Virus record (IMG/VR): IMGVR_UViG_3300027835_000143
Location: 31,718-95,717 of that record
Length of the DNA stretch: 64,000 nt
Source: a virus
Reading direction: 5' to 3' (one strand)
Part shown: positions 10,422 through 31,155 of the stretch, piece by piece
Layout: each line of letters starts with the position of its first letter
Position numbering within the stretch: position 1 is the first letter of the stretch
Translations under genes and position numbers: made by a program
The notes under the pieces: model-generated
Databases searched by the model: none
What the model saw: the letters and a program-made list of their open reading frames with translations, nothing else
What the model was told of the DNA's origin: nothing

Positions 10422-10690
10422 CCGCGCGCGGGTTCTGCGCGCCCGGCGAGGCCGAGGCAGCGAAGGGCGCCGTCCACGCGCTCGCGACTGCGCTCTGCGG
10501 TGTGATGGCGATCTACAACGGCGCCGCGTTCCTCTATAGGCGCGAGCGGCACCTGGCGTTCAACGCCGTCGCCTACGGCCTGGCGACGTGGTGGGAGGCC
10601 CAGCAGACCGCGCGGCACTGGCGCCGGACGGTACCTAGAACGGCGGAGCGATCTTTGAATGGCGGTCCTTGTCACCGCATGTCTTCGTAA
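10418..10690 (+). CDS. Small two-TM membrane protein
   Basis: GTGA overlap with previous gene; two hydrophobic helices. Confidence 0.5.
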   Translation: MTARGFCAPGEAEAAKGAVHALATALCGVMAIYNGAAFLYRRERHLAFNAVAYGLATWWEAQQTARHWRRTVPRTAERSLNGGPCHRMSS

Positions 10691-11240
10691 GTCCTGCGCG
10701 AAGGCTCCCGGCATAGATAACCTTCTCGGTCCCGCAATCGCACAAGCATTTCCATTTCGATTGGCCAACATACCTGATTGTCACGAGCGCGCCGAAGCGC
10801 GTTCCTATTTCAACCGGCGCAGTCGCAGAGATTTTTCCGCGGCTTAATCGCCGCACGCAATCAGAGCACGTCCCGGAGCCTGCTTGGAACGCGTCGCGCC
10901 GCTTAGACGAATCGCATTCAGGACATCGCTGAAGTAGATCATCAGGAATCCGTCGACCGCGCCGTCGCGACTGTTCCGGCCGCATCGTATAGGGGAAGAG
11001 CATTGGCTGTTTGAGATAACCAACCGCTGCCGCTAACCATCTACTGCCCCACGCGTCAAGGGTCCCGAGTCGGCTATTGCACGTCCCGCACAAGGCTCCC
11101 CTAACGAAGCCTGTCGAATGGTCGTGATCTAGCACGGCCGCCTCGGCCGGACAAAGGGCGCAACTGCCGGAAGAATTGGACGCAGCTAAGCGCAAGGCGT
11201 CCATGTAAGCCGGATCGTCTATTTTTGTTAGCCTTTTCAT
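10635..11240 (-). CDS. Endonuclease VII-type (HNH) homing endonuclease with C-terminal Zn/DNA-binding module
   Basis: CALC..LDHDHSTGFVRGALCGTCNSRLG; GTRFGALV..WKCLCDCG..L..G.TKTCG; the only convincing minus-strand gene. Confidence 0.85.
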   Translation of the reverse strand: MKRLTKIDDPAYMDALRLAASNSSGSCALCPAEAAVLDHDHSTGFVRGALCGTCNSRLGTLDAWGSRWLAAAVGYLKQPMLFPYTMRPEQSRRRGRRIPDDLLQRCPECDSSKRRDAFQAGSGTCSDCVRRLSRGKISATAPVEIGTRFGALVTIRYVGQSKWKCLCDCGTEKVIYAGSLRAGLTKTCGDKDRHSKIAPPF

Positions 11241-11252
11241 CTAAAATAAGTA

Positions 11253-11281
11253 TAGACACGTTTACCGGATATATGTATACT
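11253..11281 (+). promoter_or_regulatory. Sigma70-type promoter TAGACA-17-TATACT
   Basis: Near-consensus hexamers in an AT-rich island; perfect palindrome TCTTACGTAAGA (11283-11294) over the predicted start site. Confidence 0.7.
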
Positions 11282-11287
11282 TTCTTA

Positions 11288-11790
11288 CGTAAGACGCGAC
11301 GCTCCTACCGGGAGCCATTGACAACTGAATGACCAGCAGCGCCGGATGACCCCGCCGAAACGGAGGGCCGGCCGACAGGAAGGCAGCGAGACGGCCGGTA
11401 ACAGGTAGGCCGCCAGTCGCAGCCGCCAGAGACTCCCAACAACAACCGTAGAGCAGAGACCGCGGCCATGTCCGTATCGGTAATGAACTTTTGCCGGATA
11501 CGCGAAAACGGACCGCTGAGTACGCCGTCCGCGCCTTCACCAGGTTGACGTTTGAGACGGGAGTCCGCGCGATGGTGGATCGCGTAGATGTCGGTGCAGC
11601 GAGAACCGTCCGAGCCTACCCTTGCCGCGCGGCGGCTGGCGATTGTGGCGATGAGGACGCGGGCGCCGACATAGAGGGGGAAACGGGTAAGGCCCGGCCT
11701 GAGCGCCGGGCGCGCCGCTTCACGGAGCGCCGCGCCGGACGCTCGAACCGAGAACGGAACTTCAACCGCGCGGTCAATGACCGCCATAGA
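11288..11790 (+). ncRNA. Candidate large structured ncRNA / 5' leader
   Basis: No convincing ORF; many complementary segments (11411-11427/11631-11650, 11431-11447/11543-11565, 11588-11597/11663-11672, 11404-11410/11614-11620). Confidence 0.5.
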
Positions 11791-11800
11791 CGAGGCCGAC

Positions 11801-11923
11801 ATGATCACACTCCGCACCGTCCTGACCTACGGGTTCCTGCTGCTCGCGTCGCTCCACGGCGAGCACGTCCACTTGCACAGGCATGCAGCGCACGCGGTTC
11901 GCGTCCACGCGAACGTCCACTAA
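11801..11923 (+). CDS. 40-aa His-rich peptide with hydrophobic N-terminus
   Basis: GAGG RBS; MITLRTVLTYGFLLLASLHGEHVHLHRHAAHAVRVHANVH. Confidence 0.4.
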   Translation: MITLRTVLTYGFLLLASLHGEHVHLHRHAAHAVRVHANVH

Positions 11924-11982
11924 CTAATAATCGTCAGCGAGTTTTTAACCGCGCGCTACGCGCGCCTTAGAGGAGAACGACG

Positions 11983-12420
11983 ATGGTAAAACTATCCACG
12001 AAGAATGCCGACGTACTCCGCGCTCGCCGCGCGGACGCAGAACAGGTCTTCGAGCTGACGATGGAAGAAGCGCGCGCATTACCCGGACTCTTCGGACGGT
12101 TCGTGCCTGCAGCCTTCGAGCACGTCGGCTTCTATACGTGCACGAAGCTCGCGAACGGCGATGACCGGACCGGCGTTAAGACGCTCTACGTGCTCAAGGG
12201 TATCGACGCGCCGCGCTGCCATTTTATGAACTGCAAGAAGACGGTGACGCATACCGTTCAACGGCTCTGGACGATTCGCGGTCGCGCGCCGTTCGCGCAG
12301 CAGCATTGCTGCGACGATCACATACCCGGCATCTTCGATCGCGAGAGCACGTTCATGCGTTCGCTCCGGCGCGCTGGCTACGCCGTGTCGCGCTACTATC
12401 GAGTCGAGAGGATCAAATGA
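11983..12420 (+). CDS. Hypothetical early protein
   Basis: AGGAG RBS; Cys/His pairs. Confidence 0.6.
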   Translation: MVKLSTKNADVLRARRADAEQVFELTMEEARALPGLFGRFVPAAFEHVGFYTCTKLANGDDRTGVKTLYVLKGIDAPRCHFMNCKKTVTHTVQRLWTIRGRAPFAQQHCCDDHIPGIFDRESTFMRSLRRAGYAVSRYYRVERIK

Positions 12421-12710
12421 GAGTCGCCGTTATCTGCGAGACGTCCGGCAAAGTCCGCGAAGCTTTCAGAAAGCTTGGGCACGACGCGGTAAGCGTCGAC
12501 GTTCTTCCGGCAGATGATCGGAGCGCGTATCACTACGTCGCCGACGCGCTCGCGTATCTCGCCGAACATGAAGCGTCGCTCGATCTCGTCGTCGCGCATC
12601 CGCCTTGCACGTATCTCTGTAACTCCGGCGTTCAATGGTTGACGCGAACGCCGAAGATGCCGAAAGCCGGAACGCAGTGGGGCGTGCCGAGCGTCGATAC
12701 GCTGTTCTAA
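12417..12710 (+). pseudogene. Truncated phage cytosine-methyltransferase-like gene (N-terminal half only)
   Basis: MRVAVICETSGKVREAF..LGHDAVSVD and LVVAHPPCTYL motifs; stops at 97 aa before any ENP motif. Confidence 0.65.
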
Positions 12711-12720
12711 ACCGCCTTCC

Positions 12721-12735
12721 GTTAATCGCCTTAAC
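12721..12735. promoter_or_regulatory. Palindromic operator-like site GTTAA-TCGCC-TTAAC (5-nt spacer variant)
   Basis: Member of dispersed GTTAR-N4-YTAAC family. Confidence 0.5.
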
Positions 12736-12855
12736 CGGCAATTTGACTTGCGGCGTATCGCCGCCTTAGAGGAGCCTCCGATGAAAACTTCCAACGCTTC
12801 GATCTTCCGCCGCTACGCCGTCGCCGTCCGCGTCGTGCGGAATTAGGAGGTCAGT

Positions 12856-14947: not shown

Positions 14948-15202
14948 ATGACAGGGAAGACTCCGCAGGAGCGCCTGCGCGACGCCGCGACGGAGGTCGA
15001 GGCGGCGCTCAAGGGGCTCGACATACGGGAGCACGCCTGCGAGTGCTGCAAGACGCGGCGGTTCGACAACTTCGCCCACGCGAAGGCGTACGCCGCGCTG
15101 AAGGAGACGCCGGCGAAGCTGCGCGACGCGGCCTCGCGGCTCGACGAGAAGGACGTCCATACGCGCCGAGACGGCGCCATCGATGAGAGGAGCCCATCAT
15201 GA
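14948..15202 (+). CDS. Hypothetical protein
   Basis: AAGGAG RBS; CECC. Confidence 0.5.
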   Translation: MTGKTPQERLRDAATEVEAALKGLDIREHACECCKTRRFDNFAHAKAYAALKETPAKLRDAASRLDEKDVHTRRDGAIDERSPS

Positions 15203-16242
15203 CCGGAGCCTGTGCACGACCCACGGAACTCTACGCCCTCGTCCGCGCCGCGATCGCGGCGCGCCTGCCGGTGCTCGTCACCGGCGCGCCTGGGCTCGGC
15301 AAGTCGCAGATCGTCGAGGCGGCGGCGGCGGCGGAGGGCGCCGACATGATCCTCTCCCATCCGGCCGTCGCGGACCCGACGGATGCGAAGGGGCTGCCGT
15401 GGCCATCGCCGGAGGGCGACTGCGCGACGTTCCTCCCGTTCGGCGAGCTGGCGCGGGCGCTCAAGGCGACGAAGCCGACGGTCTGGTTCCTGGACGACCT
15501 CGGCCAGGCGCCGCCGAGCGTGCAGGCCAGCTTCATGCAGCTCCTGCTCGCGCGGCGCGTCAACGGGCACGCGCTGCCGGACTGCGTGACGTTCGTCGCG
15601 GCGACGAACCGGCGGACGGACCGCGCGGGCGTCAGCGGGATCCTGGAGCCGGTGAAGAGCCGGTTCGCGTTCATCGTGGAGCTGACGGCGCACATCGACG
15701 ACTGGTGCGCGTGGGCGTTCGGGCACGGCATCCCGCCGGAACTGATCGCGTTCCTGCGGTTCCGCACCGAGTTGCTCTGCGACTTCAAGGCGAGTGCGGA
15801 CCTGACGAACTCGCCGCTCCCGCGCACCTGGGCGCACGCGGCGCGGATCCTAGCGCTCGGCCTGCCGCGCGGGATCGAGCAGGCGGCGCTCTGCGGCGCC
15901 GTCGGCGAGGGGGCGGCGGTCGAGTTCTCGGCCTTCCGGCGGTTCTTCGCCGAGATGCCGAACATCGACGAGATCCTCCGCGACCCGGACAGGGTGGCGG
16001 TCCCTGACCGGCCGGAGACGCTCTACGCCATCGTGACGGCGCTCGGCATGCGGGCGACGACGGCGAACTTCCCGAAGGTCGGGCGGTACGCGGAGCGGCT
16101 CGTCGCGGCGAAGCACGGCGAGTTCGCCGCGCTGCTGCTGCGCGACATCGTCGCGCGCGACGCCGGGGTCATGCAGTCGCCGACGTTCGTCAAGCTGGCC
16201 GCCGGGCCGCTCGGCGAGCTGATCGATGGGAGCAAGGCGTAG
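15199..16242 (+). CDS. MoxR-like AAA+ ATPase
   Basis: Walker A GAPGLGKS, Walker B WFLDD, VAATNR, KSRF, PRTW. Confidence 0.9.
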   Translation: MTGACARPTELYALVRAAIAARLPVLVTGAPGLGKSQIVEAAAAAEGADMILSHPAVADPTDAKGLPWPSPEGDCATFLPFGELARALKATKPTVWFLDDLGQAPPSVQASFMQLLLARRVNGHALPDCVTFVAATNRRTDRAGVSGILEPVKSRFAFIVELTAHIDDWCAWAFGHGIPPELIAFLRFRTELLCDFKASADLTNSPLPRTWAHAARILALGLPRGIEQAALCGAVGEGAAVEFSAFRRFFAEMPNIDEILRDPDRVAVPDRPETLYAIVTALGMRATTANFPKVGRYAERLVAAKHGEFAALLLRDIVARDAGVMQSPTFVKLAAGPLGELIDGSKA

Positions 16243-16281
16243 AGCCGCGGCAATCCGGCCGCCATGAAGGAGGGTAGGGCG

Positions 16282-17190
16282 ATGACGAACTACGCAGAGG
16301 TGAACGCGCGCGCGCTGCTCGTGAGCCTGCACGTCGCGGTCTGGGGTGCGCAGCGGTTCGACCGCGCCGTCAGCGACGCGGTCACGGACGGGAAGCACGC
16401 GGACAGGAGCAGCGGCCGGTTCAACAAGCACCTGTTCGGGACGACGCGCGCCGGGCGCGGGCACGCGCCGGAATTCTTCGCCGTGATCGACGCGGCCGAC
16501 CGGCTGCGCAACCTTCACGACCGCGAGACGCTGCCGTGGTCCAAGCGCGCCGGCGAGCGGCTGCTGCCGGTGACGAACTACTTCGACTACATGGCGAAGG
16601 TCCGCGCGGCCGGCGGCGAGTTTGAGTTGGCCGTCGAGGCGCTCATCGCCGCGTACCCACGGCTGCAGGAGGCGGCGCGGACGCGGCTCGCCGGCCTCTA
16701 CCGCGCGGAGGACTTCGTCGCGCGGGCAGACCTCCGGTGGCGGTTCCACTACGAGGTCGAGGTGACGCCGGTGCCCGGAGGCGGCGACGTCCGGCTCGAC
16801 CTGCCGCAGGACCAGATCCGGCAGATCGAGGCGGCGCTGACGGAGCGCATGGAGCGGACGACGCGCGAGGCGATGCGGGACGCCTGGGCGCGGCTGCACG
16901 AGGCCGTCACGCGCATCGCGCGGGCGAGCGGCGAGGGCGGGATCGTCCGGGAGTCGCTGCTCGAGAACGCGCGGATGGTCTGCGACGTCCTCCAGCGCCT
17001 GAACGTCGCCCAGGACGCGGACCTGGAGCAGATGCGGCGCCGCGTCGAAGCCGAGCTGACTGTCCTTTCGCTCGAGGACCTGCGGACGAACGACCGGCTG
17101 CGGACGGACACGGAGAGCAGGGCGCAGGCGATCCTGGCGCAGATGGCCCAGTTCTACGCGCCGGTGAAGGCCGATGCCATCCACGCGTGA
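16282..17190 (+). CDS. Conserved phage protein (DUF3150-like) of the AAA/vWA module
   Basis: TLPW...RLLP, YP.L...A..RL..LY...DF pattern; position between AAA+ and vWA genes. Confidence 0.55.
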   Translation: MTNYAEVNARALLVSLHVAVWGAQRFDRAVSDAVTDGKHADRSSGRFNKHLFGTTRAGRGHAPEFFAVIDAADRLRNLHDRETLPWSKRAGERLLPVTNYFDYMAKVRAAGGEFELAVEALIAAYPRLQEAARTRLAGLYRAEDFVARADLRWRFHYEVEVTPVPGGGDVRLDLPQDQIRQIEAALTERMERTTREAMRDAWARLHEAVTRIARASGEGGIVRESLLENARMVCDVLQRLNVAQDADLEQMRRRVEAELTVLSLEDLRTNDRLRTDTESRAQAILAQMAQFYAPVKADAIHA

Positions 17191-17464
17191 GCCGAAGGAG
17201 AAGGTCGGCCTCGCCCTGTGGCCGAAGCTGAAGCCGCACAACATCACCCTGCGTGCTCCGGTTCACGGGTCGCGAGCCTTACGGCTCGTCCAGCGGGAGC
17301 ACGGGACGCGCCACCGGAGAGCCGGTGGCGCGTGCGATAGCCTCGCGGCCGAGATCCGCAGGCAGATGATGAGGGACGAGCCGATGGCATTGTCGGCGGT
17401 GCGGACGGCCGTCGCGCGCACGGCGCGGCGGCTGCGCAATCTGATGAGGGAGGGGACATCATGA
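17174..17464 (+). CDS. Basic hypothetical protein
   Basis: Fills the gap, ATGA-coupled to next gene. Confidence 0.4.
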   Translation: MPSTREPKEKVGLALWPKLKPHNITLRAPVHGSRALRLVQREHGTRHRRAGGACDSLAAEIRRQMMRDEPMALSAVRTAVARTARRLRNLMREGTS

Positions 17465-18606
17465 CCAGGAAGCAGGTGACCGCAGACGACATCGTTCGGC
17501 GCGCGCGGACGGCGCTCATCCTCGACCACCCGTTCTTCGGCGCGCTCGCGCTCCGGCTGACGCTCGTCGAGAGCACGGAGCGGCCGACCGCGTGGACGGA
17601 CGGCAAGATCCTCGGCTACAACCCGGACTTCATCGCGACGCTCCCGTTCGCGGAGGTCGTCGGCGTGATGGCGCATGAGGTCATGCACTGCGCCTGCGGC
17701 CACCCGTGGCGGCGCGACGGGCGCGAGCCGCAGAAGGCGAACGTCGCGATGGACTACGCCATCAACTGGGAGATCGAGCAGTGCGGCCTGAAGCTCCAGG
17801 CGGGCCGGCTGCGCGAGGCGGCGTACGACGGCAAGTCGTTCGAATGGATCTACAACCGCCTGCCGGACGCGCGGCAGCGGAAGGGCGGCGGAATGCCGGG
17901 CGGCGGAATGCCTGGTGCGGGCGGCGAGGACGTCGTCGACGCGGTGACCGGCGCTGCTGGCGCCGAGGGTGCGACGGAGGCAGACTGGCAGCAAGCCGTC
18001 CAGCAGGCGGCGGCGGCGGCGAAGATGCGCGGCGACCTGCCGGCGTCGCTGGACCGGTTCGCGAAGGCGGCAGTGGAGCCGCGCATCGACTGGAAGTCGG
18101 TCCTCAGGCGGTTCGTCCAGCAGGCCGCCAAGAACGACTACAACTGGACGCGGCCGTCCGCGCGGTACCTCGCGCGCGGCCTCTACCTGCCGTCGCTGCG
18201 GAGCGAGGCGATGGGGCCGATCGCGGTCGCGGTCGACACGAGCGGCAGCATCGACCAGGTGACGCTCGACGCGTTCGCGGCGGAGATCAACGCCGTCGCG
18301 AGCGAGGCGCAGCCGGAGCGCGTCGTCGTCCTCTACTGCGACGCGCGGGTCCACCGGACGGACGTCTTCGAGCGGGACGAGCCGGTCGAGATGCATCCCT
18401 GCGGCGGCGGCGGGACGTCGCACAGGCCGGTGATGGACGCCGTGGACGCGATGCCGGAGCCGCCTGTCTGCCTGATCTGCCTGACGGACCTGATGACGGA
18501 GCACCGGGCGCAGCCGCCGGAGATGCCGGTGCTGTGGGCGACGACGTCGATGGCGTGGGCCGACAGGGTGCCGTACGGCGAAGTCGTGAGCCTCGAACGC
18601 GTATGA
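17461..18606 (+). CDS. DUF2201-type metallopeptidase plus vWA domain protein
   Basis: TAWTDG, HEVMH zincin motif, NVAMD..IN, MIDAS DTSGS, GGGTS, LTD. Confidence 0.9.
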   Translation: MTRKQVTADDIVRRARTALILDHPFFGALALRLTLVESTERPTAWTDGKILGYNPDFIATLPFAEVVGVMAHEVMHCACGHPWRRDGREPQKANVAMDYAINWEIEQCGLKLQAGRLREAAYDGKSFEWIYNRLPDARQRKGGGMPGGGMPGAGGEDVVDAVTGAAGAEGATEADWQQAVQQAAAAAKMRGDLPASLDRFAKAAVEPRIDWKSVLRRFVQQAAKNDYNWTRPSARYLARGLYLPSLRSEAMGPIAVAVDTSGSIDQVTLDAFAAEINAVASEAQPERVVVLYCDARVHRTDVFERDEPVEMHPCGGGGTSHRPVMDAVDAMPEPPVCLICLTDLMTEHRAQPPEMPVLWATTSMAWADRVPYGEVVSLERV

Positions 18607-30137: not shown

Positions 30138-30143
30138 CTGAAT

Positions 30144-30835
30144 ACGTAACCTGATTGGCAGACTATACACGCGCGGCCGGGATAGGTTATTCTTGCCGGT
30201 GAAGCTGCGGGTTGGGTTTGGCCGCCCTGACCGTAGACGACGGGTTCACCCGACGGTGTTTCGTTGATCGCACCGAAGGGAATCCGCAGCAGACTTTCGT
30301 CGCAGGATCGACGTCATGAGATTGTTCCTACAGACAATTCACGCCGTGAACCTCCAGCGCACCGTAGGTCTGCACATCCGCAGCTCCTGTTCTCCCGCTC
30401 CGAACGCGGCGGGCTCTAAGTAGGCGTTCCGTCGAGATTCCGCTCTCGGACGCGCGCGGGAACCACGTAGCGCGTGCGCCGGCCAAGTGGCGACCGACCG
30501 GGCGATGACGCCCTGGCGGTCACGCGCCGTTCCGGCTCCGGCTGGGACGGCCGCGGCACTATGGGACAGGGCTCCAGCCCAACGCCACGAGGTAGAGTGC
30601 GGCGCGCGGCGCCGTCGTCGGGTCACCTGCTGGAGGCGCGCCGGTTTGTCGGCGCGGAAAAAGCTGACGCTGCTCGGCATGGGCAGGCGGGGACTACCCG
30701 TCGTCTGCTCGGCCGACGCTGACGCGTCGTCCGGTCACGGTACGCTCTTACGGTTCGTTTCGGACTAGCTGGTTACAAGTACTTCGAGTACAACCTCTCG
30801 GATCAAGTACGTGGACGGGCCGTACTAAGTACGTA
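30144..30835 (+). ncRNA. Candidate structured ncRNA/regulatory leader
   Basis: Cloverleaf 30204-30290 plus a series of GC-rich hairpins; no convincing ORF. Confidence 0.4.
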
Positions 30836-30846
30836 GGAGGAAGGCG

Positions 30847-31155
30847 ATGCAGCACGTGATGGAGGTCCTCGACGCGAGCGGGCACGTCGAGCTGACGTGG
30901 ACGCCAGGGGACGCTGAGAGCGAGGCGACGGCGCGCGCGGAGTTCGATCGGCTGAAGGCCGCCGGGTTCGCGTTCTTCTCGACGCCTGGAGATGACGCGG
31001 AGGAGGTCATGGGCTGGCCGACGCGCGGTCGGCCGCCAGCGTGGACGAAGGCAGGGACGCTTGACGTGCGCACCGAGCCGATCGCGGAGCAGACGACGGA
31101 GTTCCGCCCTTATGCGAGCCGGACGGTCGCCGTCCGGCCGATGCGGGGAGGCTAG
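30847..31155 (+). CDS. Phage hypothetical protein
   Basis: AGGAGG RBS; LD.SG....W.P, C-terminal PMRGG. Confidence 0.65.
   Translation: MQHVMEVLDASGHVELTWTPGDAESEATARAEFDRLKAAGFAFFSTPGDDAEEVMGWPTRGRPPAWTKAGTLDVRTEPIAEQTTEFRPYASRTVAVRPMRGG

Follow-up and report, generated by a model that had tools for sequence, protein, structure and literature searches.

Genome context and organization of the locus

The window, i.e., the whole stretch of DNA that was analysed, comprises 64,000 nucleotides and corresponds to bases 31718-95717 of the 95,717-bp IMG/VR record IMGVR_UViG_3300027835_000143, which represents an uncultured, metagenomic, high-GC phage (94% complete according to CheckV). Nearly all genes of this phage are located on the plus strand. 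The following features were distinguished at the locus (positions are those of the window):

10635-11240, minus strand: Endonuclease VII/HNH-type gene, 201 aa (Pfam PF02945, E 5.2e-14; PHROG endonuclease VII/HNH families)
11253-11281, plus strand: match to a sigma-70-type promoter, TAGACA-17-TATACT, found by a consensus scan
11288-11776, plus strand: non-coding stretch, read as an untranslated 5' leader (chance-level structure, no homologues, no coding signal)
11305-11817, minus strand: open frame of 170 aa, judged probably spurious (codon score -0.22; pLDDT 37)
11491-11970, plus strand: open frame of 159 aa (codon score -0.34; no homologue found)
11588-11597 paired with 11663-11672, plus strand: long-range helix of 10 bp with one G-U pair, enclosing 65 nt (mean pair probability 0.93)
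11761-11800, plus strand: first of five copies of a start-associated element (TTCAAC, a 6-bp hairpin, CGCCATAGA and GAGG)
11801-11923, plus strand: small ORF of 40 aa, first gene of the presumed early operon (GC by codon position.72/.35/.90; codon score +0.24; period-3 p=8e-7)
11983-12420, plus strand: next early gene, 145 aa, Cys/His-rich (codon score +0.18; second copy of the start-associated element upstream)

To the left of the leader there are plus-strand genes followed by the convergent endonuclease gene, while a long run of plus-strand genes, mostly without known families, extends to the right. An island (10600-12850) with a G+C content of 0.57-0.63, compared with approximately 0.68-0.73 in the flanking sequence, extends from the endonuclease gene across the leader to the first early genes. 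The endonuclease gene itself has a GC content of 0.58 (.57/.56/.60 by codon position) and lacks a period-3 signal (p=0.75); this composition and the missing periodicity suggest that it is of foreign origin. An inverted repeat, AAGTATA/TATACTT, spans positions 11248-11282. Owing to this repeat, a TATACT precedes the endonuclease ATG by 8 nt on the minus strand, which suggests that the gene has a divergent promoter and that its mRNA has no leader or almost none. The possibility that the endonuclease gene resides in a group I intron was considered and rejected, as neither minus-strand exons nor an Rfam match were found.

The candidate promoter

The first-pass annotation had pointed to TAGACA-17-TATACT as the best promoter in the window, divergent from an HNH endonuclease gene, and both statements were confirmed. 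The site (11253-11281, plus strand) is the sole 10/12 match to the sigma-70 consensus in the 95.7-kb genome, of which both strands were scanned in full, the next best being seven sites with 9/12 matches, and the divergent gene at 10635-11240 is indeed an endonuclease of this type. Within 2 kb, one promoter match was counted vs 0.3 in shuffled sequences. The match lies inside one of only four AT-rich islands genome-wide. Judged by its sequence, this promoter probably fires, with a predicted transcription start near 11288, within the palindrome TTACGTAA (11285-11292), which occurs only once in the genome.

Another stretch free of ORFs, ~700 nt long (30144-30847), follows a further sigma-70-like promoter, TTGACG-17-TAGCGT, and has no similarity to the region 11241-11990. 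TACGTAA is found 5-6 nt past the -10 hexamer in both cases, at 11285-11292 and at 30143-30149, so that both of these promoters preceding long non-coding stretches carry it. As an operator common to the promoters at 11253 and ~30110 this heptamer was nevertheless rejected, since TACGTA was observed 7 times vs 7.1 expected and the recurrence may be a coincidence.

Coding potential of the stretch downstream of the promoter

Coding potential was assessed with a codon model trained on 54 confident genes vs 116 shadow ORFs of the same genome; the real genes score +0.27 per codon on average (5th percentile -0.19) and the shadow ORFs -0.33. No frame with a sustained positive codon score was found between 11301 and 11700, and the period-3 GC signal is absent from 11290-11776 (p=0.39), whereas all 33 of the 33 native coding windows of equal size gave p<0.01. 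The earlier statement that about 500 nt following the promoter are devoid of a credible ORF thus holds from 11290 to approximately 11720, from where a plus-strand frame (i1) scores as coding. The plus-strand frame of 159 aa is of a length reached in about 2.5% of shuffles. A plus-strand gene frameshifted from frame i0 to i1 was also tried and rejected: neither frame scores as coding before 11720, and no homologues were found.

One gene caller did call the minus-strand frame at 11305-11817, which appears as a 167-aa gene (P0001) on one 16,263-bp public contig (the contig that also carries P0004) and is uncalled in the 95.7-kb record. This ORF is probably spurious. Its codon score falls below the 5th percentile of real genes and is shadow-like, its GC content by codon position is flat (.66/.62/.69), and the AT skew of its sense strand (-0.29) lies beyond the range of the 54 confident genes. 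Its product matched only itself among 1.84 billion (1.84e9) representative proteins, belongs to no Pfam or PHROG family, and was modelled by AlphaFold2 at the low pLDDT listed above. No promoter was found for it on the minus strand, and its start overlaps that of the clearly coding plus-strand ORF. That it is a real orphan gene of 165-170 aa, possibly foreign and co-oriented with the endonuclease gene, is therefore unlikely; we retain this explanation as a minor one, since frames open over 170 codons are rare in shuffles (2.4%) and since the neighbouring endonuclease gene, which is certainly real and lies in the same island, is likewise without native codon statistics. The public gene call and a GGAG that precedes the minus-strand ATG (11802) by 7 nt also speak in its favor.

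In 11310-11430 the plus strand is A-rich and contains only 4-6% T (it includes CAACAACAAC), and its AT skew of +0.69 is the highest of any 120-nt window in the genome; all other top windows are the sense strands of plus-strand genes and have nearly equal values. This loading of A over T fits a plus strand that is transcribed and sense-like, and it speaks against the minus-strand ORF. None of the protein-binding motifs screened for enrichment held up once multiple tests were corrected for, and GGA is as frequent as expected. No repeat families or iterons were found in the stretch, which makes a replication origin unlikely, and this candidate was rejected.

Predicted folding and complementarity

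The many complementary segments of the stretch had been taken as the sign of a novel large structured ncRNA, with five long-range pairs quoted in its support. All five pairs do exist at the positions given, but the number and length of the complementary segments are at chance level when compared with dinucleotide shuffles. There are 13 Watson-Crick stems of at least 7 bp (9.6 +/- 3.0 in the shuffles) and 3 of at least 8 bp (2.7 in the shuffles), and the longest stem, of 8 bp, compares with a mean maximum of 8.7. The counts remain at chance when G-U pairs are allowed, with 3 stems of at least 10 bp vs 2.5 in the shuffles. In the partition function only the pairing of 11588-11597 with 11663-11672 is favored among the quoted helices, and chance would be expected to give a helix of that size; the other four have probabilities of no more than 0.005. 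Several local hairpins are predicted at p>0.9.

The predicted fold of the 506 nt between 11285 and 11790 (plus strand) has an energy of -211.3 kcal/mol. Dinucleotide shuffles reach -204.9 +/- 6.4, which gives z = -1.01, with 14 of the 100 folding equally well; in 150-nt windows of the plus strand, z ranges from -1.72 to +1.13. The architecture of the leader is what any 66% G+C sequence of the same composition adopts, and the proposed structured ncRNA was not borne out: its fold is no better than that of shuffled sequence, and complementarity of a kind that any sequence of such composition gives makes the region unfit as an ncRNA candidate. Since the power of z-scores is limited for RNAs of ~500 nt, a z near -1 is compatible with a functional RNA. 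Chance-level folding takes away the positive evidence for structure; it does not prove the absence of function.

Searches with the 4227 models of Rfam release 15 gave no match in the whole window at the gathering score. With permissive filters and a threshold of E<=10, the region 11100-12100 was likewise without a match. This agrees with the first-pass annotation, which had recognized no known RNA family here. No tRNA or tmRNA was found. GOLLD, ROOL, HEARO and OLE are large phage- or prophage-associated structured ncRNAs represented in Rfam. The stretch resembles them in its size class of several hundred nucleotides and its phage context, and differs from them in matching none of the Rfam models, in showing no excess folding energy and in having no homologues.

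A discrete functional structured ncRNA of ~500 nt on the plus strand, with no known relatives and with a fold that escapes thermodynamic tests of low power, is improbable in our estimation. It would account for a strong promoter match placed directly upstream of a stretch without coding signal, for the one well-defined 10-bp helix and the confident local hairpins, and for the retention of sequence that a phage would be expected to shed if useless. Against it stand the overall and local z-scores, stem counts at chance, the negligible probabilities of four of the five quoted helices, the empty Rfam search, the lack of a terminator-like 3' end, and the absence of conservation in any of the collections searched.

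On the opposite strand, 11296-11455 can be folded into a long irregular hairpin of -73 kcal/mol, with z between -2.3 (3 of 200 shuffles) and -3.0. A minus-strand structured RNA at this position was rejected, since no promoter was found for it and since its signal is marginal once the 28 windows tested are taken into account.

Search for relatives

No homologue of 11241-11982 was detected by blastn among 50,697 phage records, and an exact 24-mer search of IMG/VR gave no match. In 31 related IMG/VR loci, blastn and six-frame tblastn revealed nothing similar to 11241-11990, and BLAST comparison with five whole related genomes returned only chance matches of 21-30 nt. Searches starting from the neighboring genes yielded no usable relatives in viral contigs (IMG/VR), JGI metagenome contigs or GTDB genome contigs. 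The relatives that were found through the endonuclease and the ATPase have only those mobile or modular genes in common with this phage. The ATPase belongs to a plus-strand module (15199-18606) that encodes a MoxR-like ATPase (PHROG 1297), a 308-aa protein and a DUF2201 metallopeptidase/VWA protein. The combination of the MoxR-like ATPase and the DUF2201 protein is common to 31 IMG/VR contigs (ATPase identity 42-73%), in which nothing else within 10 kb is shared. Among these module relatives, many have the match to the DUF2201 gene split in two. In the collections searched, the stretch 11288-11800 is thus lineage-specific and an orphan.

This absence from all relatives examined, the position of the stretch within the lower-GC island beside a mobile-type endonuclease gene, and stop-poor frames that are slightly above chance could also be explained if it were what is left of one or several decayed genes, or the scar of an endonuclease cassette insertion, which is now merely read through. 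We regard this origin as distinctly doubtful, given that no frame has detectable protein similarity and no period-3 signal is left. It is compatible with reading the stretch as an untranslated leader, and the two are hard to separate.

The start-associated element and the first early genes

The first-pass annotation extended the candidate RNA to 11790, a position that falls within a separate, repeated element placed just upstream of the small ORF starting at 11801. In this first copy of the element, TTCAAC is followed by a hairpin (11770-11784; pair probability 0.82), CGCCATAGA (11782-11790) and GAGG (11792-11795), the latter located 5 nt before the ATG. The core motif, CGCCWTAGA, occurs five times in the window, at 11782, 11963, 12762, 13595 and 20246, always on the plus strand, vs 0.67 occurrences expected; no shuffle reached five. 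Each of the first four copies follows a predicted 6-bp hairpin, whose sequence differs from copy to copy and which often comes after TTmAAC. The distance from the motif to the next ATG, which is provided with a Shine-Dalgarno site, is 10-16 nt in these copies. The last 30 nt of the stretch therefore belong to a distinct recurring feature, which might act as a phage-specific promoter, as a site of processing or as a signal for translation.

Cluster K mycobacteriophages carry start-associated sequences (SAS), with extended inverted repeats (ESAS), of unknown function (PMC3203893). The element described here resembles them in being a short motif placed just before several start codons, in one orientation and preceded by an inverted repeat. 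It differs from ESAS, whose 17-bp imperfect repeats have a consensus for each genome, in having 6-bp arms that vary between copies, and CGCCWTAGA has no sequence relationship to the Cluster K motifs (PMC3203893).

The ORF at 11801-11923 is a genuine coding gene, as its codon score and strong GC periodicity show; it has been called as a 40-aa or a 48-aa protein on public contigs. The 40-aa protein combines a single hydrophobic helix with a His-rich tail, in which 7 of 20 residues are His, and no homologues were found beyond its own contigs. The product of the next gene (11983-12420) contains the motifs PRCHFxNC ... HCCDxHIPG and may bind zinc. Its single homologue among 5.8e9 proteins (P0003; an 83-aa sequence, 61% identity) is encoded on a 2,096-bp ENA contig.

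Comparison with antitermination and attenuation leaders

The alternative offered in the first-pass annotation, an antitermination leader of the early operon, was upheld in part. The anatomy fits (a promoter, ~510 nt of non-coding sequence and genes on the same strand), but the case for antitermination comes down to a boxA look-alike, CGCTCCTA at 11300-11307, which matches CGCTCTTA at 7 of 8 positions; the latter is the lambda-type consensus and may not be that of the host. Given that 8-mers with one mismatch to boxA are rarer in the window than chance predicts (21 observed vs 43 expected), this match probably carries no information. A 5-bp hairpin predicted with p>0.9 at 11301-11315 overlaps the boxA-like site; its loop, UACCG, is not of the boxB type, in which a hairpin with a GNRA-like pentaloop lies downstream of boxA. 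No antiterminator domain, N-like or Q-like, was recognized in the downstream ORFs, which is weak evidence given that N proteins are small and divergent. An exact copy of CGCTCTTA, the lambda boxA 8-mer, is located at 30743 within the second ORF-free stretch (30144-30847), one of two exact matches in the window vs about one expected.

In lambda, the leader between PL and N is about half as long as the ~510-nt leader described here. What the locus would share with the lambda PL and PR leaders is a host-type promoter that borders the early region, followed by a presumably untranslated stretch and a first early gene on the same strand. Unlike in the lambda nut leaders, there is neither a significant boxA/boxB pair nor a recognizable N-like or Q-like protein encoded downstream.

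Long untranslated RNAs invite termination by Rho, and a leader of ~510 nt hints at some protective or regulatory feature. The stretch might accordingly control read-through into the early genes, either by lambda-nut-like antitermination or by Rho-dependent attenuation in C-rich, G-poor stretches. Windows with more C than G are present at 11410-11460 and 11735-11800, and the boxA-like match lies ~12 nt past the predicted transcription start and overlaps a confident hairpin. With boxA-like 8-mers below expectation, a loop that is not of the boxB type and no recognizable antiterminator domain among the ORFs downstream of the leader, we consider such control unlikely.

Proposed interpretation of the stretch as an untranslated leader

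On balance we favor, though not strongly, the explanation that 11288-11800 is untranslated sequence at the head of the early operon, a long 5' leader or a spacer, with no demonstrable structure. The arrangement expected of such a leader was found: a promoter match upstream, no coding signal between 11290 and 11720, and plus-strand genes at 11801 and 11983. With a fold no better than that of shuffled sequence and no relatives, the stretch is most likely just the untranslated leader of this operon, rather than a new structured RNA.

According to this model, transcription from the host-type promoter at 11253-11281 would run through the leader of ~510 nt as far as 11801, where the rightward early operon would open with the 40-aa ORF, introduced by the element composed of the hairpin, CGCCWTAGA and the Shine-Dalgarno site. 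The leader would be filler specific to this lineage, or a simple spacer with a regulatory role at most, situated in the lower-GC island beside the mobile-type endonuclease gene, and its sequence itself would have little or no function. Phage genomes are compact, and a functionless leader of 500 nt would be unusual, which counts against filler. The leader could instead be a lineage-specific regulatory RNA that acts through processive antitermination, Rho attenuation or long cis-acting RNA timing the early genes, that is thermodynamically invisible, and whose relatives are unsequenced; to this we assign a low probability. Should the structured-RNA explanation prove true, a new large phage RNA would head the early operon.

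Three results are of practical use for this otherwise unannotated phage. The 167-aa minus-strand gene call of the public contig is flagged as probably spurious, a candidate promoter of the early region is now located, and the early genes are taken to begin at 11801, just after a start-associated element that recurs in the window.
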